Shown: positions 12,915-25,208, counted from the first letter of the stretch. The stretch: 64,000 nucleotides of DNA from Bdellovibrionales bacterium (GCA_965217115.1 OZ244239.1:512001-576000); one strand, 5' to 3'. The notes: generated by a model not told the origin, from the sequence alone. Program-made: numbers and translations.

Positions 12915-15161
12915 CTATTTCTCAATGAAAGAACGTAAGAGATTCAATGCCGAACCCGCCTTAAACCACTTGATCTGATCTTCATTATAGGTGTGCTTGG
13001 TTTGAATACTTTCAACAGAACCATCTCTGTGTTTTAAAACCACTTCTAGGTTTTTTCCCGGAGCAAAATCCTTCAAACCAATAACGGAAACAGAATCTCC
13101 CTCTCGAATTTTATCGTAATCACTCGTATTAGAAAAATGCAGGCCTAACATTCCCTGTTTTTTTAAGTTTGTCTCATGGATACGAGCAAAGCTCCGCGCT
13201 AAAACAACGACCCCACCAAGATGACGGGGACACATCGCCGCATGCTCTCGACTACTGCCCTCTCCATAGTTCTCATCACCAATGATCATCCAATTTTTTC
13301 CTGTGCCCTTATAAGAACGGGCTATTTTAGAATACGGCTTTTCCTTATCATGCCCAACCTCTCCCGTAAAAGCATTATCAGCTCCTATCAGAAGGTTGTC
13401 TGAAATATTATCCAAATGCCCACGAAAACGTAACCACTTACCACCTGGGCAAATATGATCCGTCGTGCACTTGCCCTTTACTTTCGCCAAAATAGATATT
13501 TCCTCAAAGTCCTCACCTGACCATGCAGCAAACGGTTCTAACAAAGCCAAACGCTCCGAACCTTCAGGCACTCTCACTTCAACCCCGCTGCCCTTGGGAG
13601 ATTGATAACCTTCACTGTCTGGCACAAAGCCTTTCTCTGGTAATTCTGGAGCCTGGGGTGCTTGCAATTTTATTTTACCCTTTGGACCTTCTAACTCTTG
13701 AGTCATAGGATTGAAGCCTAAATTCCCCGCAAGGCCAAGGGCCATCACCAACTCAGGGCTACCGATAAAAGAGAGTGTCTCCCCATTGCCATCGTTTCTT
13801 CCTCGAAAATTACGATTGAAACTCGTCACAATCGTATTGGTTTCACCCACCTTAATATCATCGCGCCTCCACTGACCAATACATGGGCCACAGGCATTCG
13901 TTAACATCGTGGCTCCCACATCATTTAGAGTCTTAGAGTAACCGTCTCTCTGAATCGTATTAGCGACTAAACTTGAACCAGGGGATACAAAAAAGTTTTG
14001 TGGCATTTTTATCCCCACTGACGAGGCCTGTTTCGCCACGAATGAAGCTCTACCAATATCCTCATAGGAAGAGTTGGTACAAGAGCCAATCAACGCCGCC
14101 GATAACTTCGTCGGCCATCCATTCTTCTCACACTCTTTAGCCACTTCACTAATGGGACGAGCTAAATCTGGAGAATGGGGACCCACGAGATGGGGCTCCA
14201 AAACCGACAAATCAATCTCAACAACAAGATCGTAATGATCTTTTGGTGATGCTAAAACCTCCTCATCAGCACATAAAATATCTCTGTGACTCTCGGCCAA
14301 CTCCACAAGAAAATCTCGTTCTGTTGCCTTTAAATAATCTGCCATTCTATTATCATAGGGAAAAACAGAACAAGTCGCCCCCAGTTCAGCCCCCATATTA
14401 GTGATCGTCGCTTTACCAGTGCAACTGATGGAGTTTAAACCTTCACCAAAATACTCAATAATACGATTGGTCCCGCCCTTTACAGTTAAGATTCCCAAAA
14501 GTTTCAAAATAACATCCTTAGCCGATGTCCAGCCATTGAGTTCCCCTGTTAAACGAACCCCGACAATTTCTGGATCTTTCACCTCCCAAGTTAACCCTGC
14601 CATAACATCAGAGGCATCCGCCCCCCCGACCCCAATGGCACACATCCCTAAACCACCAGCATTCGGAGTGTGAGAGTCTGTTCCAATCATCAATCCACCG
14701 GGAAATGCATAGTTCTCCAAAATAATCTGATGAATAATTCCCGAACCAGGTTTCCAAAAACCAATTCCATAACGACTGGCCGCAGAACCTAAAAATTCAA
14801 AAACCTCTTTATTAAGCTCATTTGAAGCTGGAAGATCTTTGTCTTTACCCATGTAACCTTGAATCAAATGATCACAATGAACCGTTGAAGGCACAGCTGC
14901 CTCCTCTTTTCCTGCTAACATAAACTGCAACAAAGCCATCTGCGCCGTCGCATCCTGCATCGCCACACGATCAGGCCGTAATTGTAAGAAGCTCTTCCCC
15001 CGTCCAAATTCCTGGGATTCAACATTATCCAAATGCCCAAACAATACCTTCTCTGCTAAGGTCAACGGACGCTGTAAACGTTTCCGAACAATCTCAATGT
15101 TTTGACGGCTTTTTGCATAAATCTTTTTCACCATATCTGAAGTCGTTTCAATCACAGCCAT
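12915..15161 (-). CDS. Aconitate hydratase (mitochondrial-type subfamily)
   Basis: [68 protein letters not shown]. Confidence 0.95.
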
Positions 15162-15253
15162 CTAAAATTCTCCTTGTGTCACACTCTGAATACTTTCCAG
15201 ACTATGCTCTGCTTCTTGGTGTTTGCAGTCAAGAACTGTTTGTTTGATTTGGG

Positions 15254-15384
15254 CAAAGAGGTGTTTTTTAAATGACATATATTCTTTAGCTCAGACATTC
15301 GTTTGGCTGCGGCGCTCGCTTTGCGAGCATCGCACCAATCCGAACTCGCTAAAGAATATATGTCATTTAAAAAACACATCTTTG
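15254..15384. repeat. Palindromic element copy 1
   Basis: 37-bp arms 15254-15290 and 15348-15384 (1 mismatch) enclose a nested hairpin core TCAGACATTCG...GCTCGC-TTT-GCGAGC...CGAACTC. Confidence 0.95.
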
Positions 15385-15401
15385 AAATCTGCGGCTGGGC
15401 T

Positions 15402-15540
15402 GGGAACAACGGAGAGAGAGAGAGAGAGGGAACAACGGAGAAGGACGGGAATAATGGAGAAAGAGACAGAGGGGGGACAACGGAGAAAGAGAAAGAGGGG
15501 GGGAACAACGGAGAGAGAGAAGGAAGGGGGGGGGGGGGGG
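15402..15540 (+). repeat. Purine-rich GGGAACAACGGAGA-type repeats and G15 tract
   Basis: About four GG(G/A)ACAACGGAGA units with (GA)n spacers; G run at 15526-15540. Confidence 0.85.
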
Positions 15541-15550
15541 AGCGATTTGT

Positions 15551-15587
15551 AAAAAAAAGCTACAATTTTATGATTGTAGCTTTTTTT
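15551..15587. terminator. Intrinsic (bidirectional-type) terminator downstream of lipoprotein 1
   Basis: A8-GCTACAA-loop-TTGTAGC-T7. Confidence 0.8.
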
Positions 15588-15609
15588 AACTATTATTTAA
15601 GAGCTAATT

Positions 15610-16701
15610 TTAGATACAATAAATCTTATCCAAAAATACACTTGGTAATTCTATAACATTCGGAGGTTGATCACCGCGCAGTCTTAACAATGTTCGCTTG
15701 GTAGGTTTCGTCTTCAATTCCCACACATCTGTCGTCTCATTAAACTCATAAACATCACTTGAAACATCATCAAAGGGTTCATACCTAATGGAGTAGGAAA
15801 GTAGGTTATCATAACCTGACTCTTTACAAATATTAGCGGCACCCTTTTTGGCCATAGGTAGAAAGCTGTCATCAACAAGATCGTTCATATGTATAATGGT
15901 CCTAAAAGCTCTCCGAATAGTCCAAGCTTCATCGGCGTTTTTTATTAGGAAAAAACTAGATTCTGTATAAAAATTGCTAGCAGGCTTCATAACAGTTGCT
16001 AGTTTTGCCGCAAGAATACTCTTTATCATCTCTGGATAATCGTCATTAATAGCAGAATTATCCTTAAAATGAGAAAGTGTTGTGCCGAAGCAAGTTATAG
16101 ACGCCATATAATTTTTTTTCTCGCCTATTTCTTCATTATAATTATTATAATACATGGAATACTTTTTATCATCACTCTCAAATTTAAAGTAATGGCTCTT
16201 AATATCTAGAGTGTCTGGAAACATACTGCCAGAAACTGGGTTTGATACCAGTGTGGCATGAAGAACAGGATAAGTTACTTTAAAATCATAGTAGTTGGCA
16301 GGCATAGATTCAAAAACCTCAGTTCGACTAGTATAATCATTTATTGTTGTATACCTTCCAAGTTCAGGGCTAGTAAAACCAAGGAAAGAGCAAATCTTTT
16401 GCACTTGCTCGTCTCCATCTTCTCCAGATATCCTTATGCCATTACCAATAGTAATTGGTTTCACGGCATCATCTCCTATCTCATTGATTGCTGATAATCT
16501 CACACTGTCATCTGCGGAAAAATATTCAACCTTAACATTCGTATCTTCTTTGCTTCCGTCTCCCACGACTGCTCCACGGTAACTCGTATCAATAATCACA
16601 ACATCACTGCCTTGATAAATATCATCATCATCACACCCAGAGATACTTAAACCAAGTAGCAAAGATAAGAGAGAATTCCTCATTATTAGTGTCTTTTTCA
16701 T
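15610..16701 (-). CDS. Predicted lipoprotein, paralog 1 (unknown function)
   Basis: Signal peptide with lipobox LSISG-C23; 363 aa; closely paralogous to 17867..18955. Confidence 0.85.
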   Translation of the reverse strand: MKKTLIMRNSLLSLLLGLSISGCDDDDIYQGSDVVIIDTSYRGAVVGDGSKEDTNVKVEYFSADDSVRLSAINEIGDDAVKPITIGNGIRISGEDGDEQVQKICSFLGFTSPELGRYTTINDYTSRTEVFESMPANYYDFKVTYPVLHATLVSNPVSGSMFPDTLDIKSHYFKFESDDKKYSMYYNNYNEEIGEKKNYMASITCFGTTLSHFKDNSAINDDYPEMIKSILAAKLATVMKPASNFYTESSFFLIKNADEAWTIRRAFRTIIHMNDLVDDSFLPMAKKGAANICKESGYDNLLSYSIRYEPFDDVSSDVYEFNETTDVWELKTKPTKRTLLRLRGDQPPNVIELPSVFLDKIYCI

Positions 16702-17057
16702 TTTTAGATCCTTTTAGATAAAGATTAGAGAATAGAGAAAACAATATTCCCATGTAGGTTGATTATTTCTTTGTTTATTAAATTATTAGACCCTGATTAT
16801 AACCGAAGAGAGAGAGTTTTTCTTAAGAAACTTACAAAGTTGAATATTTTACAAATGCCCATCAAGAGAACTTATCTTTTCCAAAATATTTTAAGCGTGT
16901 GACGAGAGAAGCTGTTGTAACTTACCGTAAATACTATGACCTAATCTGTATTTATTTTATTTCTATTTATTTGGTAGATTGTAATCTATTTTCCAAAAAA
17001 GCACTAAAATCAAACAATAGACGCCTATTCCTCTCCCCTTCGCTGTTCCTTACCCTC

Positions 17058-17760
17058 TCTCCGTTGTTTCCAGCCCAGCCCAGCTGCAGATTTTAAAAAT
17101 ATGTTTTTTTAAATGAATGTTTATTCTTTAGCTCAGACATTCGTTTGGCTGCGGCGCTCGCTTTGCGAGCATCGCACCAATCCGAACTCGCTAAAGAATA
17201 AATATTCATTTAAAAAACCACCCTTTACCAAATAATAGGTTTTAGCCAAGTCGAAAAATGCCACAATAATTCAACCTCCCCAGTTAGTTGTCCCCGTCCC
17301 CCTCTCCGTTGTTCCCAGCCCAGATGCAGATTTCAAAAATATGTCTTTTTAAATGAATGTTTATTTTTTAGCTCAGACATTCGTTTGGCTGCGGCGCTCG
17401 CTTCGCGAGCATCGCACCAATCCGAACTCGCTAAAGAATAAACATTCATTTAAAAAATCACCCTTTACCAAATAATAGGTTTTAGCCGAGCCGGAAAATG
17501 CCACAATATTCAACCTCCCCAGTTAGTTGTCCCCGTCCCCGTCTCCATCTCCATTACTCCCGTCCCCTTTTCCTGTTGTTCCTAGCCCAGATGCAGATTT
17601 CAAAAATATGTCTTTTTAAATGAATGTTTATTTTTTAGCTCAGACATTCATTTGGCTGCGGCGCTCGCTTCGCGAGCATCGCACCAATTCGAACTCGCTA
17701 AAGAATATATGTCATTTAAAAAACACATCTTTGAAATCTGCATCTGGGCTGGGAACAACG
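17058..17760. repeat. Tandem array of three palindromic element copies (2, 3, 4) with shared linker
   Basis: GCTCAGACAT starts at 17131, 17371 and 17638 (periods 240 and 267 bp); linker CACCCTTTACCAAATAATAGGTTTTAGCC...GCCACAAT recurs. Confidence 0.95.
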
Positions 17761-17806
17761 GAGAAGGACGGGAATAATGGAGAAAGAGGGGGGGGGAGCG
17801 ATTTGT

Positions 17807-17844
17807 AAAAAAAAAGCTACAACTTTATGATTGTAGCTTTTTTT
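17807..17844. terminator. Intrinsic terminator downstream of lipoprotein 2 (duplicate of 15551-15587)
   Basis: A9-GCTACAA-loop-TTGTAGC-T7. Confidence 0.8.
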
Positions 17845-17866
17845 AACTATTATTTAAGAGCTAATT

Positions 17867-18955
17867 TTAGATACAATAAATCTTATCCAAAAATGCACTT
17901 GGTGCTTCCATTTCATCCGGCGGTGTATTAGGACCTCGCTTCCTTATTATTGTTCGCTTGGTAGGTTTCGTCTTCAATTCCCACACATCTGACGTCTCAT
18001 TAAACTCATAAACATGACTTGAAACATCATCAACGAATTCATATCTAAGGGTGTAGGAAAGCAGATTATTATAACCTGACTCTTTACAAATATTAGCGGC
18101 ACCCTTTTTGGCCATGTCTAGAAAATTGTCCTCATCGTCGTAATCGCGCACACGTATAAAGTTCTCAAATCTAAGATGCCAAAAGTCATGGGCATTTTTT
18201 ATCAGGAAAAAACTAGATCCTGTATAGAAATTGCTAGCAGGCTTTATAATAGTTGCTAGTTTTGCCGCAAGAATACTCTTTATCATCTCTGGATAATCGT
18301 CATTAATAGCAGAATTATCCTTAAAATGAGAAAGTGTTGTGCCGAAGCAAGTTATCGATGCCATATAACTCTTTTTCTCGCCTATTTCGTTTTCTATATA
18401 GCTTTCATAATATTTGGGCCGCTCTTTCTCGCTATCAAAATAATGACTCTGAATATCTAGAGTGTCTGGAAACATACTGCCAGAAACTGAATTTGGTACC
18501 AATGTGGCATGAAGAACGGGATAAGTTGCGCTGAAGTCTCTGTAATTTCTGTGGGTATATTCAGGCTTCTCTCTATAAACCTCAGTTCGACTAGTATAAT
18601 CATTTATTATTGTATACCGTCCAAGTTCAGGGCTAGTAAAACCAAGGAAAGAACAAATTTTTTGCACTTGCTCGCCTCCATTTTCTCCAGAAATTCTTAT
18701 ACCACCACCAATAGTAATTGGTACTGTGGCATCTCCTGCCTCATTGATTGCTGATAATTTCACACTGTCATCTGTGGAAAAATATTCAACCTTAACATTC
18801 GTATCTTCATTGCTTCCGTTTCCCTCAACTATTCCACGGTGACTCGTATCAATAACGACATTAGGAGAACTACCTGTATAGTCATTACACCCAGAGATAC
18901 TTAAACCAAGTAGCAAAGATAAGAGAGAATTCCTCATTATTAGTGTCTTTTTCAT
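17867..18955 (-). CDS. Predicted lipoprotein, paralog 2 (unknown function)
   Basis: Signal peptide and lipobox identical to paralog 1; 362 aa. Confidence 0.85.
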   Translation of the reverse strand: MKKTLIMRNSLLSLLLGLSISGCNDYTGSSPNVVIDTSHRGIVEGNGSNEDTNVKVEYFSTDDSVKLSAINEAGDATVPITIGGGIRISGENGGEQVQKICSFLGFTSPELGRYTIINDYTSRTEVYREKPEYTHRNYRDFSATYPVLHATLVPNSVSGSMFPDTLDIQSHYFDSEKERPKYYESYIENEIGEKKSYMASITCFGTTLSHFKDNSAINDDYPEMIKSILAAKLATIIKPASNFYTGSSFFLIKNAHDFWHLRFENFIRVRDYDDEDNFLDMAKKGAANICKESGYNNLLSYTLRYEFVDDVSSHVYEFNETSDVWELKTKPTKRTIIRKRGPNTPPDEMEAPSAFLDKIYCI

Positions 18956-19246
18956 TTTAGATCCTTTTAGCTAAAGATTAGAGAATAGATAAAACAATAT
19001 TCCCATGTAGGTTGATTATTTCTTTTTTATTAAATTATTAGATCCTGATTATAACCGAAGAGAGAAAATTTTTCTTAAGAAACTTACAAAGTTGAATATT
19101 TTACAAATGCCCATCAAGAGAACTTATCTTCTCCAAAATATTTTAAGCGTGTGACGAGAGAAGCTATTCTAACTTACCGTAAATACTATGATCTAATCTG
19201 TATTTATTTTATTTCTATTTATTTGGTAGATTGTAATTATTTCCCA

Positions 19247-19301
19247 AAAAAACACCCTTTGCCAAATAATAGGTTTTAGCCGAGTCGGAAAATGCCACAA
19301 T
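19247..19301 (+). repeat. Isolated fragment of the repeat-array linker
   Basis: AAAAAACACCCTTTGCCAAATAATAGGTTTTAGCCGAGTCGGAAAATGCCACAAT matches the linkers near 17215, 17455 and 21935. Confidence 0.85.
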
Positions 19302-19618
19302 TAATTACTTTTGATAATGTCTCATCTTATTACTGGATTCACGATATAGAGTCTTACATCGACGAGAGCCTAGAAAGCGAAAAGAAGGCTTATTAGCCCC
19401 TTCTCTGCTTCGTTTTCTACTCACTAAAAGCACCCTAAACTTAGAGATATCTTTGCCTGAAAAACTAATTTACTCTCTATGATATCAAGTGTTTACAAAA
19501 ATATAAGATTACGTAAACTCTTCCTAACTTGCTAAAAAGACGGTATTTGAACGTTTTTTGCACAGATTTTGGTCGATTTATGTTATTATAGACGTAGAAA
19601 GTACCGATAAAAGAAGGT

Positions 19619-20050
19619 ATGGAGGCAAATATGTCAGATTCAGCACAGACAATAAATAATGATGTTAATGGTGGAATACTAAATTCACTAGGCATCTTAA
19701 CTGAGGATGGCATGGGTTTTCATCCTGATGCATTTTTTAAATATAGTCCCTACAGCAGAACAGTCCTTGCAAAAGAAGCAAAAGTTTCCAGAACTAATTT
19801 ATACAAAGATACTGTTAAATTAAGCACTATTAAGCAATTAAGAAAAGGTATCCTTCAAGTTGTAATGGGAACAGATTTAACTATCGAGCTTTTTAAAGAC
19901 AATACAGAAGAAGCAATCAAATGGTTTAATGCTCCAAATACAATGCTATCTGGTGAATCTCCTTTTGAAGTCTGTATTAGAAGTGATGGACATGGACTTT
20001 TAAACTGGTTAAGAGGGAGACTTGGTTACAGCGATGCTGTCCCTTTTTAA
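19619..20050 (+). CDS. Antitoxin, Xre/MbcA/ParS family
   Basis: HTH-like LAKEAKVSRTNLY; C-terminal ELFKDNTEEAIKWFNAPNTMLSGESPFEV typical of the toxin-binding domain; precedes a RES gene. Confidence 0.8.
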   Translation: MEANMSDSAQTINNDVNGGILNSLGILTEDGMGFHPDAFFKYSPYSRTVLAKEAKVSRTNLYKDTVKLSTIKQLRKGILQVVMGTDLTIELFKDNTEEAIKWFNAPNTMLSGESPFEVCIRSDGHGLLNWLRGRLGYSDAVPF

Positions 20051-20150
20051 TTGATAGTGGCCAAAACAAAAAAGAAAACCACTAAAAAAAAACACAGCAA
20101 AGAAAAAGGTTCCAAAAAAATATATTATACGCTTTAGTAAAGAAGTTCTT

Positions 20151-20795
20151 TTGAAGTATGTCCAAGATGATATTCAAAAAAATCAACAAATAGAAAAAAA
20201 TCAAATAATTGAATCAATGAGGTTTGAGCATTCGTTAAATACTCAAGGGAAATTAAACTTTCAAACATTTAAAGTTTCTTTTAATGATCCTGTTTATAGA
20301 GTTTATCCAAAACAGTTTAGTGTAACTAGCATCCTTGGGAGCATCTCTGACGGTGCGAGATTAAATATTGGAGGGCCACAAATTCTAAAATCAAATTTTC
20401 CTTTTAATAAATTTGGAGCATTATATATTTCAAATACAATGGCTGGGGCAATTGCAGAATATTGTCAGGGAACGCCTTTAGATAAAAATGACTACAAGTA
20501 CACACTGCAACCTCAAAAAACTTTTGAGTTGTGGGATTTAGATAAAGTTGTTAGCAACTTGCAAATTTCATCTCTGAAATTTCTAATTGATAAATTACCA
20601 ATTGGAGGTGGCTGGGGAAATTGCAAAGTCCCAATGCCTTCTCAGATATTAGCAACTTGGTTAAAAAGCATAGATGGTGATGGGATAATGTATACTTCGA
20701 CTAAAGACCTAAACTCTAAGATTATTGCGATCTTCACACAAAATGATAGAGAATCTGAAAATAATTTTTCAATAATTAGCAGAACAAATATATAA
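20151..20795 (+). CDS. RES-domain toxin (start uncertain; may begin at GTG 20057 through a frameshift)
   Basis: VYR, GARLN, ALYIS, AIAE, SQILATWL, DGIMYTS motifs of RES NAD+-degrading toxins. Confidence 0.8.
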   Translation: MKYVQDDIQKNQQIEKNQIIESMRFEHSLNTQGKLNFQTFKVSFNDPVYRVYPKQFSVTSILGSISDGARLNIGGPQILKSNFPFNKFGALYISNTMAGAIAEYCQGTPLDKNDYKYTLQPQKTFELWDLDKVVSNLQISSLKFLIDKLPIGGGWGNCKVPMPSQILATWLKSIDGDGIMYTSTKDLNSKIIAIFTQNDRESENNFSIISRTNI

Positions 20796-21132
20796 TTAAA
20801 ATAACTGCTAGAAGAAAAGAAAGCTCTTATGATTATTCCTACGTTATTCCGTAGTGACAATTTACCAGAAACTGTTTTTTCAGAAAATGATTTTTAGCAT
20901 AGAAGAAGGACTTGGGGTAAATATTATAAGACAGAAGGATTGATGGCAAAATTTAGTGATGCCGGCAAAGCTGGATGGAGTTAAAAAGCCTAGCATGGCT
21001 TGTTTCTGCCCACGTTAGCTATGTTAATGCTCCGACAGGTAAAACCCCAACAACAAGAACAGTTTTTCTCTGACTCCTCAAGTAGCTTAAATGCTAGAAC
21101 TGCTGCCATCGATTAACTCTCAGAACCCTTGG

Positions 21133-21582
21133 TCAAACGTGTCCGATGCTTCGTTGAATAATTTGATCAAGTTTTCCTAAAAATTTAGATCGATCGGTCT
21201 TAGTCATGGAACTGGGGCCAGTGTTGGTATGTCCTAGAGTTCTAAGATGGGCATTTATTTTTCTTGCAGCTAGTGCGCTACCGATATTTTCCTCATCAAA
21301 TTCATAACCTTTTGCTCCGAGTACTTTGGCTTCTTTTTGAATTCCACGTTCAGCTAAAAGCAAATCTGCTGTAATGAGAATGTCACCAGCTTTGATATTC
21401 TCAGCTATCCAGTCATCGGCAGCATCAAAGTCATTGGAGACCACTTGCATTTCAATGTTTTTATCCAGGGGAGTATTTAAGTATTGATTGGCGACAACAA
21501 TCACTTTTAACTGGTAACGAGCAGCTACTTTATAAGTTTCTTCTTTAACTGTGCAGCCATCAGCGTCGATATAAATTGTCAT
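21133..21582 (-). CDS. yaiI: YaiI/YqxD (DUF188) family protein
   Basis: IYIDADGC.VK, FDAADDWI, DILITADLLLA motifs. Confidence 0.9.
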   Translation of the reverse strand: MTIYIDADGCTVKEETYKVAARYQLKVIVVANQYLNTPLDKNIEMQVVSNDFDAADDWIAENIKAGDILITADLLLAERGIQKEAKVLGAKGYEFDEENIGSALAARKINAHLRTLGHTNTGPSSMTKTDRSKFLGKLDQIIQRSIGHV

Positions 21583-21672
21583 TTAAGTCCCTTTCAATTT
21601 GTCATCTTTAGTCTATATAAAACAGCATCAGAGAGAATAACTATCAAGCAACATCTATTTCATAACCCCTTT

Positions 21673-21757
21673 CCCCCGTTGTTCCCGTCCTTCCCAACTA
21701 TTCCTGTCCCCCGTTGTTCCCGTCCTTCCCAACTATTCCTGTCCCCCGTTATTCCCA
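21673..21757 (+). repeat. 35-bp pyrimidine-rich tandem repeat
   Basis: CCCCCGTTGTTCCCGTCCTTCCCAACTATTCCTGT twice plus a partial third copy; contains the reverse complement of the GGGAACAACGG motif. Confidence 0.9.
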
Positions 21758-22186
21758 GTCCAGCTGCAGGTTTCAAAAATATGTTTTTTTAAATGGACAT
21801 CTATTCTTTAGCGAGTTCGGTATGTTTTTTAAATAAATATTTATTCTTTAGCTCAGACATTCGTTTGGCTGCGGCGCTCGCTTTGCGAGCATCGCACCAA
21901 TCCGAACTCGCTAAAGAATAAACATTCATTTAAAAAACCACCCTTTGCCAAACAATAGGCTTTAGCCGAGCCGAAAAATGCCACAATAATTCAATCTCCC
22001 CAGTTAGTTGTTCCCGTTCCTATCTCCGTTGTTCCCAGTCCAGCTGCAGATTTCAAAGATGTGTTTTTTAAATGGACATCTATTCTTTAGCGAGTTCGGA
22101 TTGATGCGATGCTCGCGAAGCGAGCGCCGCAGCCAAACGAATGTCTGAGCTAAAGAATAGATGTCCATTTAAAAAACACCTCTTTG
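21757..22186. repeat. Truncated palindromic element, copy 5 (21825-21937) and inverted-core copy 6 (22054-22186)
   Basis: Arm plus GAGTTCGG stub at ~21785-21820; full + core from 21853; reverse-oriented core at 22092-22148. Confidence 0.93.
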
Positions 22187-22192
22187 CCCAAA

Positions 22193-23359
22193 TCAAACAA
22201 AAGATTGCTTTTTGATTTTTTCTAGAATAATCTTCTCAACCTTAACCGGATCCGTCGGATCAACACTAAAATAAGACTGCTGTTCACAACGTTTTTTCTC
22301 TGTAATCAACCACTTTAAAATATTAGATAACTTTTTATTTTTCTTATCGTGGAAAAAAGGATCATTGTTTAAAGCGTCCTTCGCTTTTTTTAGGGACCTT
22401 AATTCAGAAGGATCTTTTTCTCCTACGCTGTAACAATGAAGATCGTATTTTTTCACGTCCTCAGGCAACACACCTAAGAATCGCACATCAGAAGCCGAAA
22501 AATCAGCATTTCGGATCAAGCTTGCCGCCGACCCCGCCTTCAAGGTCCGATAAATATTCTGAATCGTGTACGCATCCAGATCTCCAAAGAAATACATCGG
22601 TGCCTTCACCTGCTCCTGAATAAGTCGACACCAACCACGCACTCCATTGCTCGGAACACCCTGCGCACCAATCACAATGCATCTATGTCTTTTCGTAAAT
22701 CCATTGGCCACCAGAGTATTCGCCGTACCCTCTGACTCGACAACCAAGGAAAAATCAATCTTGCCCCTCGTTTTTAAGCTCAATGCTTGGGGCTTATTTT
22801 TAGGCTGAAACGGAGTCGTCCCCAACGTAGATAGGTCAACAACCGCCTTCTCTTCATCAGGTAAAGTCTCAGTGACTATCAATTGTTTCGAGTAAGTTTG
22901 ACCACCACGATCATTGGCAAAACAATTAAGCTCCTCACGATACACTTCTAACATATCACAAATAAACTCAATTACAGAATCACTCTCAATCTGATCATTG
23001 AAATCTAAGGGTTTTAACTCTTTATTGCTTTTCACCATACCCTTGGCTAAATAATAAATCTCACGCTTAGTATTCTGAGAGCCTATATCTAGGTTCCGTA
23101 AAAATATCTCTAATAGGAAAACCACCCGTGCCATCTTCTGTACCGACGAGACATTCAACTCTGTCTTCACCTTTTTTTCGCCAGGGGTTAGATACCCTAC
23201 CTTAGAGTCGTAAAAAGAATTATCAAGAGAGCACTTGATCGCTTCCAACATCGGACGGCGACTGTTCTCCAAATCCTTTAACATCTTATCACACAGAATC
23301 ATGGATTCTTTAGGGATGTCTTTTTTCAGCTCTCTTATGCGTGCCCGTGTTTTAGCCAT
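22193..23359 (-). CDS. top6A: DNA topoisomerase VI subunit A (Spo11-like)
   Basis: TKREIYY catalytic Tyr motif, TOPRIM VVESEG, GVP, FGDLDAY (DxD); follows top6B. Confidence 0.9.
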   Translation of the reverse strand: MAKTRARIRELKKDIPKESMILCDKMLKDLENSRRPMLEAIKCSLDNSFYDSKVGYLTPGEKKVKTELNVSSVQKMARVVFLLEIFLRNLDIGSQNTKREIYYLAKGMVKSNKELKPLDFNDQIESDSVIEFICDMLEVYREELNCFANDRGGQTYSKQLIVTETLPDEEKAVVDLSTLGTTPFQPKNKPQALSLKTRGKIDFSLVVESEGTANTLVANGFTKRHRCIVIGAQGVPSNGVRGWCRLIQEQVKAPMYFFGDLDAYTIQNIYRTLKAGSAASLIRNADFSASDVRFLGVLPEDVKKYDLHCYSVGEKDPSELRSLKKAKDALNNDPFFHDKKNKKLSNILKWLITEKKRCEQQSYFSVDPTDPVKVEKIILEKIKKQSFV

Positions 23360-23366
23360 TTCTCCA

Positions 23367-25208
23367 CTACCTTTTCTTAGACTTCTTGGTCTTCTTTTTC
23401 TTCTTAACTGTTTTCTTCTTAGCTGCTTTTTTCTTGGTTACTGATTCCTTTTTTTTCTTTTTGATGGCTCTCTTCTCAATCACCTTTTTTTTCTTCTTAG
23501 CCCCTTTCTTCTTCTGTGTCTTATTCAACAACAAAGGAGATGATTCCTCTTTGCTCTCTCCCTCAACACCCAAAACCTGGTCTTGTTTCACCTTTAGCTG
23601 AGCCAATCTCTCACTCGCCGAAGCCAGTTTTTCTTCAGCCTGATCAGTGTCACGACCCAAAATAGAAGATAAACCATCAATCGCTTTTCTCCTTCTCTTA
23701 TCGCTAGCTCCGGTTAAGCGCACAAGTGTGTTCACCAATATAGGTCCAAATTGCTCTATATGTTGCTTCTTTCTCTCCAAATCAGCTTCACGAAATTCTT
23801 TCTTAATATGACGACTCAACTTCTGTCCCGCCTGAATCAAAGCACGACGAATTTCCTCCACCAGTTCATTACTAGAATCGATTGTCTCTTTAGAGGCATT
23901 CTTAAATTTGATAAACGGTGACACGACACTCACTGCAAAAACATAGGGACCCAGAGGCAAAGAACCCTTCGGTTGACTCAACCCATAGGCTTTCCAATTC
24001 ACTGATTCAATCGCCTGAGTCACTGCACAAGCCGCTTTATCAAACTGCAAAGGCACTCGATTGGCAAAACGTAATAACTGAACAGACCCTTCACTCGTCT
24101 CCGCTTTTCTCTCTTGAAAACGAGCCAAAGCCACCTCAATCACAACAGGCTTAAAATCACAAATCGTCGGACGACGACAAACCACACTGAAAAAATCCAC
24201 TTCTCCCAAACGAAGAATGCTCTTAGACAATGCCTCTTCGCCAACCTTCAACACCGATTTCGTACTCGGAGCTAACAAATCTGTATCCTGTAATACCTGG
24301 AAAACCTTCTTAAACTCAGCATCACCCATAGATGAAATAGATTTATCCAATATTGCTTTTTTTAAACCGTTCTTTTTTAAATCCTTAAAAGTGTTATCAG
24401 ACACTCGGGAAAAGCCTGTTTTTAAAAACTTACCCAGTGGCACTTTGCCAAATAAATGGGCGTGGGTGATAAATTCGCCTAATTTCATCGTGTGTGGATG
24501 GGGAGGTGTTGGTTGGGGAATGGAAGGCGTCTCCTCTGACACTCTCTCAATGTAAATTTCTTCACGATCTAAAAGTTTATATCTAAGTGTTAGGTGAGGA
24601 TTCACCAAAGTTGTTCCATCCAAGTAAGTCAGAATTCCGCCATCGCCATTTAATTGAACACGGCCATCAATTTTAAACTCTACACTCACCCCATGGGAAC
24701 GATTCCAATCAAGGGTTTTCCGATCTTTTAAAACACCCTTATTGCCTTTAATATCCACATCAACAAAACACGACACCGCCTTGCGCATACGCTGAGTTTT
24801 ACTTAAAACCTTCACGCCCTTAGCGTTGGTCAACTGCGCCCAAGTCGTAGCTGCAGATATTCCAATTCCTTGCTGCCCCCTAGAACATTGTCCTTTCCCA
24901 AATTTAGACGATGCCAAGTACTCTCCGTAAACCTTGGCTAAATCATCCTCCTCAATGCCAGGACCGTTATCCTCAATGACTATTTTGATTAAATCCGCAT
25001 TTTTTGCCGATCCTTTACCTACTTTTTCTACTATCACCTTGATTTCAGGAAGCAAACCAGCTTCCTCACAAGCATCTAATGAGTTATCTACCGCCTCTTT
25101 CAAGGTCGTTAACACCGCCTTGATCGGCGACGAAAACCCCACCTGCTGGAGGTTCTTAGCAAAATATTCAGCTGTACTACTCTGTGTGATTTGATTTCTC
25201 TTTGCCAT
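23367..25208 (-). CDS. top6B: DNA topoisomerase VI subunit B with Lys-rich C-terminal tail
   Basis: AEYFAKNLQQVGF, GHKL EAVDNSLDA, DNGPGI, SRGQQGIGIS, RFANRVPL, FKNASKE. Confidence 0.93.
   Translation of the reverse strand: MAKRNQITQSSTAEYFAKNLQQVGFSSPIKAVLTTLKEAVDNSLDACEEAGLLPEIKVIVEKVGKGSAKNADLIKIVIEDNGPGIEEDDLAKVYGEYLASSKFGKGQCSRGQQGIGISAATTWAQLTNAKGVKVLSKTQRMRKAVSCFVDVDIKGNKGVLKDRKTLDWNRSHGVSVEFKIDGRVQLNGDGGILTYLDGTTLVNPHLTLRYKLLDREEIYIERVSEETPSIPQPTPPHPHTMKLGEFITHAHLFGKVPLGKFLKTGFSRVSDNTFKDLKKNGLKKAILDKSISSMGDAEFKKVFQVLQDTDLLAPSTKSVLKVGEEALSKSILRLGEVDFFSVVCRRPTICDFKPVVIEVALARFQERKAETSEGSVQLLRFANRVPLQFDKAACAVTQAIESVNWKAYGLSQPKGSLPLGPYVFAVSVVSPFIKFKNASKETIDSSNELVEEIRRALIQAGQKLSRHIKKEFREADLERKKQHIEQFGPILVNTLVRLTGASDKRRRKAIDGLSSILGRDTDQAEEKLASASERLAQLKVKQDQVLGVEGESKEESSPLLLNKTQKKKGAKKKKKVIEKRAIKKKKKESVTKKKAAKKKTVKKKKKTKKSKKR

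Follow-up and report, generated by a model that had tools for sequence, protein, structure and literature searches.

Enzyme-less palindromic sequences of 100 to 150 bp, such as the ERIC/IRU sequences, the Correia elements (CREE/NEMIS), and the neisserial intergenic mosaic elements, occur near gene ends and in variable regions of bacterial genomes. The closest described kind to the repeats considered here is the repetitive extragenic palindromic (REP) sequence, or the REP doublet forming a hairpin (REPIN), together with its Y1 transposase (REP-associated tyrosine transposase [RAYT] or IS200-like). REPINs are described as REP-doublet hairpins with compensatory changes and ordered tandem arrays that include the flanks, and they cluster near RAYT genes (PMC3116915). 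Their populations are reported to decay slowly after RAYT loss (bioRxiv 10.1101/2021.07.10.451892), and REPs are described as bearing a GTAG or CGTC tag at one of their ends (Di Nocera et al. 2013, PMC3733652). The insertion sequence (IS) ISDra2, a member of the IS200/IS605 family, is described as inserting after TTGAT without target duplication (PMC2806898), and attC clusters that have no integron integrase (CALINs) are described as common (Cury et al. 2016, PMC4889954). Here we describe a 7-kb segment, positions 15239 to 22201 of a 64,000-nucleotide stretch of a Bdellovibrionales genome (GCA_965217115.1, OZ244239.1:512001-576000; hereafter, the window), in which two inverted copies of a long imperfect hairpin enclose accessory genes between top6A and an aconitase gene.

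The hairpins at this locus belong to an orphan REPIN-like family whose anatomy is unusual and which is consistently associated with accessory islets. With the ERIC/IRU and Correia sequences they share their nature as intergenic imperfect palindromes near gene ends that have no enzyme of their own, whereas the TA duplications and IS-like terminal repeats of Correia elements are not seen here, and we know of no member of these groups that combines an invariant tip with an iteron tail. The likeness to REPINs is closer: the units are extragenic, multicopy, imperfect-palindrome hairpins of 100 to 150 nt with a long fold as single-stranded DNA (ssDNA) and no target-site duplication (TSD), their stems carry compensatory changes (27/36 pairs), their tandem arrays repeat the flanks, hairpins lie near Y1 HUH genes (here in one relative, G020), and REPIN populations can persist after their enzyme is lost. 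Unlike REPINs, the family has no RAYT in this genome, and its units are oriented (with left and right boxes and an iteron tail), sit on stop codons, and bracket islets of orphan genes. Hairpin-recognizing ssDNA transposition, a short target, the lack of a TSD, and the pentamer TTGAT would be the points in common with IS200/IS605 elements and palindrome-associated transposable elements (PATEs), such as ISDra2 (PMC2806898); in contrast to these, each unit here is one large hairpin instead of separate left-end and right-end hairpins, tnpA and tnpB are absent, and TTGAT is in the consensus and yet is not universal.

We consider it probable that the 7 kb represents an accessory islet that was assembled by recombination among these oriented REPIN-like hairpins, with a Y1 enzyme as the former mobilizer of the hairpins. 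The islet would have grown in an ancestral top6A-aconitase intergenic spot of 17 to 30 bp, and the hairpin copies would both bracket it and cut it into modules.

Boundary repeats

The segment is delimited by the following two copies of the hairpin unit.

15239-15415, plus strand: L, the left boundary copy, in canonical orientation; begins with TTTGTTTGA and the left box TTTGGGCAAAG
about 15246-15389, within L: hairpin, with its core at about 15290-15347, followed by the right box TTGAAATCTGC..CTGGGAACAACGG
22023-22201, minus strand: R, the right boundary copy, in canonical orientation; its left box begins on the top6A stop codon

A blastn search against the genome returned 22023-22201 as the reverse-strand match of 15239-15415, with 95.5% identity over 179 aligned columns (about eight differences; E = 1e-76). 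The longest perfect stretch shared by L and R, 36 nt, lies at their outer ends (15239-15274 and 22166-22201; repeat search of the window). L is one long imperfect hairpin with flanks, and R likewise; as ssDNA, L folds at −54.6 kcal/mol, compared with −19.0 ± 3.0 kcal/mol for 200 shuffles (z = −11.9), and its reverse strand as RNA gives a fold z of −12.1. R holds the last two codons of top6A plus the TGA, with the stop codon at 22193-22195, and the aconitase start (15161) is 78 bp from L. No direct repeat or TSD flanks the pair in the sequence inspected at both ends. A sequence-only reading of the window had described the inverted copies of about 178 bp with about eight differences, each consisting of a palindromic element plus outer flanks, the right one including the end of top6A (TTT GTT TGA) and the left one about 78 bp from the aconitase start, and the alignment, the fold, and the coordinates agree with it on every point. 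Its inventory of accessory cargo (two variable lipoproteins, a RES toxin-antitoxin pair, yaiI, and further palindromes) was likewise correct, as was its statement that the segment has no TSD, transposase, RAYT, or integrase, which the sequence and genome-wide enzyme searches support.

The same reading had considered that the pairing might be a matter of chance if the 178-bp unit were scattered through the genome. The family is indeed dispersed (60 near-full copies at about 20 loci); nonetheless, L and R are reciprocal best matches, whereas copies from other loci reach at most 85% likeness in the same comparison and at most 87% to the six local copies, so that the L/R pairing is not due to chance. 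L and R are not a private pair but the two outermost members of a locally homogenized set of copies, and four more hairpin copies or part-copies lie between them, beside the cargo genes.

An empty site in relatives

The segment is flanked by the following features.

12915-15161, minus strand: aconitase gene (Pfam Aconitase and Aconitase_C), the downstream flank; follows top6A on the same strand in relatives
15162-15238 (77 bp), no strand: spacer upstream of the aconitase gene, single copy in the genome; 17 to 30 bp in relatives with a tight junction
22193-25208, minus strand: top6A (22193-23359) and top6B (23367-25208), the upstream flank, assigned by Pfam; top6A is present in 39/40 relatives

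Among 40 relatives, top6A was found in 39 and a close aconitase (E ≤ 1e-100) in 26, with both on one contig in 24. In 6 of these 24 (G004, G008, G016, G019, G026, and G035), the two genes lie on one strand with a gap of 17 to 30 bp, which is the empty site that the sequence-only reading had proposed looking for; since relatives have top6A directly beside the aconitase gene, the 7-kb segment is inserted accessory DNA. The gap measures 164 to 241 bp in 2 of the remaining relatives, 0.4 to 6.4 kb in 14, 14.9 kb in 1, and 148 kb in 1. The larger gaps contain one to four unrelated open reading frames (ORFs) and no long inverted repeats; homologs of the cargo are also absent from the gaps of these relatives. 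The top6A-aconitase spot is variable across the order, and an empty site exists.

The hairpin family

In the genome searched (G000), the window lies on a single 2.17-Mb contig with 39.6% GC. A profile built from full copies (nhmmer) gave 92 nonoverlapping matches at about 20 loci, 60 of which span at least 150 of the 186 model positions, and 55 of these 60 full copies were aligned, with five that contain insertions omitted. Each unit runs from a left box, (T)TGA-TTTGGGCAAAG, through an outer stem, a tip, and a second stem arm to a right box and an iteron tail. The outer stem of about 25 to 30 bp varies in sequence by locus while its pairing is kept: in the 55 copies, 27 of the 36 predicted stem pairs have changed on both sides, with few G-U intermediates. 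The tip, by comparison, is a 60-nt asymmetric sequence with 29 invariant columns (TCAGACATTCGTTTGGCAGCG..GCTCGC-loop-GCGAGCATCGCACCAATCCGAACTC), made of two inverted half-sites of about 25 to 28 nt with a 3-nt loop between them. The right box, TTGAAATCTGC…GACTGGGAACARCGG, is followed by a purine-rich tail with GGGAACARCGG repeats, and tip and flanks share one relative orientation in 54 of the 57 tips found with a fuzzy-pattern search. TTGAT stands immediately 5′ of the left box in 13/55 copies, at 9 loci; because it lies within the repeat consensus, it is a lead and no test of ISDra2-like targeting.

The six local copies are 89 to 95% alike, and likeness within loci exceeds likeness between loci; the locus-specific stems are as expected from local copying. 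Tandem arrays are found at 351 kb, 717 kb, 1924 kb, and 2027 kb, and many copies stand in gene-less tandem arrays with a spacing of 165 to 190 bp. The right box alone (about 50 nt) also forms three to four tandem repeats with periods of about 66 to 132 bp beside a full copy (G000:C1:1657514-1657761, 1026011-1026426, and 1510288-1510435) and therefore behaves as a separately amplifiable module. GC skew places the origin at about 1.26 Mb and the terminus at about 0.17 Mb, and the tip orientations are mixed on both arms, although the copies are not independent. Over the window, no Rfam family reached its gathering score, with only subthreshold look-alikes of long-hairpin microRNAs (E up to 10), and no tRNA or tmRNA was found in 14000-24000. 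Among the papers listed for palindromic intergenic repeats of Bdellovibrio, none deals with such a family by its title or abstract, which is not proof of novelty.

The placement of the units was assessed against a longest-ORF call (at least 100 amino acids [aa]; 1859 ORFs covering 87.5% of the genome), which replaces a gene finder only crudely. A gene reading into the unit has its stop codon overlapped or abutted by the left box in 19 of the 60 full copies (model start to ORF end, −27 to 0), and one additional case was seen in the sequences; the genes concerned include purF-like, lipB, methylmalonyl-coenzyme A mutase, rlmL, polA, and kpsF-like genes. Within clusters outside the islet, switches from (+) to (−) copies, with the left boxes outward, number seven, versus one in the reverse sense. 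Between the first and last copies of a cluster, 46 of the 59 ORFs of at least 80 aa have no Pfam family (E ≤ 1e-4), versus 20 of the 76 ORFs in the 2.5-kb cluster flanks. The L/R bracket is one instance of this recurrent layout, in which the end of a housekeeping gene is followed by a left box, the hairpin, a right box with iterons, and orphan genes, often with a mirror-image copy on the other side.

As a candidate intrinsic terminator, the large hairpin was rejected: its stem has the T run on the 5′ side, and each of the two lipoprotein genes of the islet has its own A-stem-T terminator between stop codon and hairpin. A scan for sigma-70 promoters and terminators gave counts equal to those of shuffles.

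Probable traces of recombination in the islet

Between L and R, the following members of the family were found.

17061-17267, no strand: internal hairpin copy with a flipped tip, having (−)-type flanks and a (+) core
17306-17507, no strand: second internal flipped-tip copy
17573-17764, no strand: hybrid copy with a right box on both sides, at the seam where the lipoprotein module is duplicated in tandem (2.26 kb)
19246-19301, no strand: solo flank of the left-box type, without a hairpin
21660-21987, no strand: pyrimidine-rich iteron tract, with a part-copy (21746-21820) and the third copy whose tip is flipped (21823-21987)

The Top6A proteins of four relatives end in …[FY][VI]-stop at the same position as the …SFV-stop here, and this conservation of the C terminus indicates that the TTT GTT TGA of R belongs to the native top6A coding sequence. 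In L, the final 9 to 10 nt of top6A, TTTGTTTGA(T), stand in inverted form beside otherwise unique DNA. Because a repeat that had inserted independently would not have brought top6A codons along, L appears to be a copy of the R junction, and we infer that it arose from the top6A-end junction by inverted duplication or conversion.

The lipoprotein modules form a tandem duplication with a period of 2250 to 2263 bp, and the hybrid copy at 17573-17764 has a left arm of the type seen at 17346, a right arm identical to that of L, and right boxes on both sides; a hybrid at the duplication seam is what unequal exchange inside the conserved tip would be expected to yield. The copies at 17105, 17346, and 21823 combine (−) flanks with a (+) tip; these 3 of 57 cores are all in the islet, with none elsewhere, and they would fit an event in which the two arms of a single palindrome were exchanged and the product was then copied locally. 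Together, the hybrid and flipped copies seem to point to recombination among local copies.

Reads from four runs of one sample and study, kept as short-read contigs, were compared with the islet. The contigs break off within the hairpins (one of 21.5 kb ends at 15268, and another, of 6.2 kb, begins at 22172), and in these four runs, with contigs broken in the hairpins, no opposite-strand joint was found at L or R; the sole opposite-strand joint is inside yaiI, at depth 3. In run X1, one contig places 19400 next to 21147 with six other letters between, which would drop the Xre-RES pair, although this joint is weak (depth 5.5, versus 8.3 for the contig with the pair, and only 30 nt on one side); the Xre-RES module is possibly a presence/absence variant whose edges have no hairpin. 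Another joint, from 19237 to 16995, is also weak and comes from the one sample. At 15658 and 19629, contigs of three runs of this sample diverge into 255 nt of unlike sequence, a weak hint that coexisting strains may differ in the body of the lipoprotein gene and in the DNA that begins with the antitoxin start.

Cargo and neighboring genes

The genes of the islet and the sequences next to them are as follows.

15416-15541, plus strand: purine-rich tail with five GGGAACAACGG-like iterons and a G14 run
15549-15587, no strand: bidirectional terminator hairpin of the ordinary type, belonging to lipoprotein gene 1
15610-16701, minus strand: orphan lipoprotein gene 1 (363 aa), without a Pfam family
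17867-18955, minus strand: orphan lipoprotein gene 2, encoding 362 aa with 75% identity to the product of gene 1
19619-20795, plus strand: Xre/ParS-type antitoxin (19619-20050) and RES-domain toxin (20151-20795), assigned by Pfam (Xre_MbcA_ParS_C and RES)
21133-21582, minus strand: yaiI (DUF188), assigned by Pfam

The two lipoproteins carry the lipoprotein signal …LGLSISGC and match no Pfam family. No relative of theirs was found among 150 other genomes of the order, and a word-based search of 5.8e9 proteins found only the two themselves. Their dS is 0.24, with a dN/dS of 0.58 overall and about 1.0 over the first 60 codons, while their upstream regions and signal-peptide ends are 94 to 99% identical; judging from these sequences, either the flanks would have been homogenized or the mature parts would be diversifying. 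The RES protein has distant relatives in 3 of the 40 genomes (30 to 35% identity). In contrast, yaiI is present in 17/40 relatives at 35 to 73% identity, elsewhere in their genomes, and in 15 of these at 57 to 73%, about the level of the flanking housekeeping genes; it looks like a lineage-typical, vertically inherited gene that has been relocated. Its neighbors in three relatives are not conserved and are uninformative. GC content is 31 to 37% in the lipoprotein and toxin-antitoxin parts, about 40% in yaiI, and 42 to 46% in the flanks. By these measures the cargo appears to be a mosaic of different ages, composed of orphan lipoproteins, an Xre-RES pair, and a relocated yaiI.

Homopolymer G runs (about 14 at 15525-15541 and about 9 at 17789-17797) close the purine-rich tails; they sit outside the lipoprotein terminators, 3′ of the genes, their length may vary, and one short-read contig terminates in the 15525-15541 run. 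The Top6B protein encoded by the flanking gene at 23367-25208 has a lysine-rich C-terminal tail of about 60 residues (…KKKGAKKKKKVIEKRAIKKKKKESVTKKKAAKKKTVKKKKKTKKSKKR), which, we presume, resembles histone H1-like DNA-binding tails.

Enzymes in this genome

Genome-wide, no recombinase or transposase was found in the segment, and the nearest tyrosine recombinase is 605 kb away, outside the window. The genome has three tyrosine recombinases, one XerC-like, one XerD-like, and one in an integrative and mobilizable element (IME) at 743 kb (G000:C1:742000-750000, L058), which encodes this 367-aa recombinase together with an excisionase-like ORF and MobC-like and TraD-like proteins; no hairpin copies lie in or beside it. 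One truncated resolvase (0.9 Mb off) and one rve gene (at 1.56 Mb) are both far from any hairpin cluster. Searches of the whole genome gave zero matches to DDE_Tnp_1, IS110, and Y1_Tnp (PF01797), and the integron integrase model TIGR02249 scored at best 120.7 bits (the XerC-like protein), 93.6 bits, and 46.2 bits against a cutoff of 265.

Hairpins and Y1 genes in relatives

With covariance models A2 and R1, multiple copies of the tip were found in 14/150 other genomes of the order, which represent at least six families. Of 11 loci inspected in relatives, 9 have the hairpin shortly past an ORF stop, often between convergent ORFs. A 25-nt exact tip pattern had one match beyond the genome itself among 185,579 species genomes, a pattern too strict to describe distribution, for which the covariance model was better suited.

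The sequence-only reading had suggested looking for HUH or RAYT genes beside other copies. This genome has none, but in G020, 5 of 7 hairpins are 142 to 378 nt from genes matching Y1_Tnp; one of these genes is flanked by hairpins on both sides, and at one locus the hairpin adjoins a 179-aa ORF that matches Y1_Tnp. With 12 Y1 matches in the 2.4 Mb of G020, a rough hand estimate puts the chance of this proximity well below 1e-6. The G020 Y1 proteins are about 181 aa long, 80 to 83% alike, and carry the HUH motif NHIHLE. They fall below the cutoffs of the NCBIfam IS200 and REP-transposase models (28 to 31 bits versus 55 for IS200), and their best matches among solved structures are the PDB chains 2xm3, 2xma, and 2xo6, labeled as transposase, which we take to be ISDra2 TnpA, at E = 0.003 to 0.01. 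Y1_Tnp-like genes of about 180 to 260 aa are very common and often multicopy in the order, with up to 27 or more matches per genome, and G000 is among the few with none. Across the order, where Y1_Tnp matches occur in 117/150 genomes, co-occurrence of Y1 genes and hairpins is not enriched. The order may harbor many lineage-specific hairpin/Y1 systems, as the frequency of the Y1_Tnp-like genes suggests.

Alternative explanations

According to the account we favor, a family that normally has its left box on or just past a gene stop codon would have placed R at the end of top6A, and L would be a recent inverted duplicate of the R junction that still carries the last codons of top6A. Unequal crossing-over, gene conversion, and arm-to-arm exchange among local copies would then have built or reshuffled the islet, and transposition of the whole block would not have been the assembling route. 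The hairpins themselves most likely spread earlier, as single strands, by means of a Y1 (HUH) transposase of the RAYT/IS200-like kind that has since been lost, and RecA could still flip the block between the 179-bp inverted copies, although that flip itself is hypothetical. Several observations weigh against this account. The proximity of Y1 genes was seen in one relative, whereas 0 of 51 hairpins in G005, G007, G011, and G085 are within 10 kb of such a gene, the hairpin-rich genomes G089 and G142 have no Y1_Tnp match, and the Y1 subfamily occurs in 66/150 genomes, as frequently in those without the hairpin. The seven Y1 loci of G020 have nothing in common beyond the ORF and some 25 nt upstream, so that the hairpin is not a fixed IS end. 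G000 has no Y1 gene or remnant (the best tblastn match, E = 0.006, is inside an unrelated 386-aa ORF), and yet its tips are little decayed. The GTAG and CGTC tags and their complements are not in the 55-copy consensus, and the conserved part here is the tip, in contrast to the two REP units at the base of REPINs. Finally, the stop-codon rule depends on our own longest-ORF script instead of a gene finder, and the account offers neither a mechanism for the inverted duplication behind L nor a reason for the gathering of accessory genes on the right-box side.

Each of the other explanations accounts for part of the data. If the locus were an integron-like or site-specific cassette platform, the hairpins or right-box iterons would be recombined in trans (by XerCD, the IME integrase, or another enzyme), and cassettes would be added one by one beside a gene-end copy, with the junction duplicated each time. 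Unit copies do separate the modules, direct-repeat copies at 1814-1821 kb carry about 45 nt of the end of a kpsF-like gene, orphans dominate inside the clusters, and the tip has one-sided unpaired bases, like attC. Like CALINs, the loci consist of imperfect palindromes with unpaired bases between mostly orphan, promoter-poor genes, with no integrase nearby, and the repeats are more similar within an array than between arrays. Nevertheless, we consider such a platform unlikely: IntI is absent genome-wide, with the best score far below the cutoff, and the third recombinase is part of an IME that also encodes Xis, MobC, and TraD; at the stem base, GTTTTTT...AAAAAAC is the reverse of the AAC...GTT order of attC, and R-box triplets are not found; an invariant tip with a variable stem is the opposite of attC; many copies are in gene-less arrays; no hairpin accompanies the toxin-antitoxin module; and the roughly 20 loci are anchored on the ends of housekeeping genes. 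There is a slim chance, in our estimation, that the hairpin is instead a structural element that serves the host, such as a protein-binding site (for a nucleoid or repair protein), a stabilizer of mRNA 3′ ends, or a hot spot of fork stalling or palindrome breakage, with islets arising secondarily since such spots tolerate or provoke insertions. This would agree with a tip that is near-invariant in the genome and conserved in other families of the order, with the placement of relatives' copies just past ORF stops, and with the fact that long palindromes are recombination hot spots. However, the patchy distribution (14/150 genomes, with copy numbers from 1 to at least 30) is more in keeping with a selfish repeat than with a site essential to the host, and the hairpin is neither an intrinsic terminator nor a member of an Rfam family.

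The two explanations that treat L and R as a functional pair fare worse. As crossover sites of an invertible cassette, they would flip the 6.6-kb interior and thereby alter expression of the lipoproteins or the aconitase; variable surface lipoproteins are typical cargo of such switches, and 179 bp at 95.5% identity with perfect 36-nt runs is long enough for homologous recombination. We find this quite improbable, as, unlike inversion switches, the locus has no dedicated invertase (there is no tyrosine invertase and no Hin-type gene beyond the truncated resolvase 0.9 Mb off), and promoter-like sites are no commoner than in shuffles. Least credible, with very little to be said for it, is a nonautonomous composite transposon in which L and R are terminal inverted repeats and the 7 kb was moved whole by a transposase in trans. 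The identical outer ends, the lower GC content, and the exact filling of the top6A-aconitase gap by the block are in its favor. Against it stand the missing TSD, the outer 9 to 10 nt of L that are top6A coding sequence, the four internal copies in a family of some 60 full copies at about 20 loci, the mosaic ages that the cargo seems to have (with a yaiI that looks vertically inherited), and the absence of a matching transposase from the genome and of any similar block elsewhere, the lipoproteins being unique. Also unlike a composite transposon or miniature inverted-repeat transposable element (MITE), the unit has dissimilar ends, a left box on one side and a right box with iterons on the other, and both outer ends of the block are the same, left end of this oriented element. 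The Y1 mechanism of IS200/IS605 elements needs both ends on one strand, so that a block with two left boxes outward should not be a movable Y1 unit. The sequence-only reading had proposed a composite element or cassette platform built from a family of hairpins; its platform idea is supported, while a single element mobilized in trans or an invertible cassette is not.

Implications

New here are the order-wide census of the tip, the rules of left boxes on stop codons and left boxes outward, the empty site between top6A and aconitase, the evidence for derivation of L from R, the hybrid and flipped copies, and the Y1 neighborhood in one relative. A further-reaching idea, which we put forward as doubtful, is that Bdellovibrio-like bacteria have an undescribed platform for gene capture whose working part is the oriented hairpin, with its left box on a stop codon, its invariant asymmetric tip, and its right box with GGGAACARCGG iterons. 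An enzyme that acts on the folded strand, be it a Y1/HUH protein in trans or one that has gone unrecognized, would join new DNA to a gene-end copy on its iteron side. If this is true, islets of orphan genes with left boxes outward would build up at about 20 housekeeping gene ends without an integrase.

If recombination among the hairpins is the correct explanation, an enzyme-less REPIN-like family would still shape the location of orphan and surface-protein genes in a small, predatory-type genome, because it supplies gene ends across the genome with palindromes and highly conserved homology. The layout provides testable rules (the left box on a stop codon, cargo on the iteron side, and brackets with left boxes outward), and relatives provide a named candidate enzyme family. 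These features bear on how accessory genes may be gained and shuffled in streamlined genomes that have almost no transposases or integrases.

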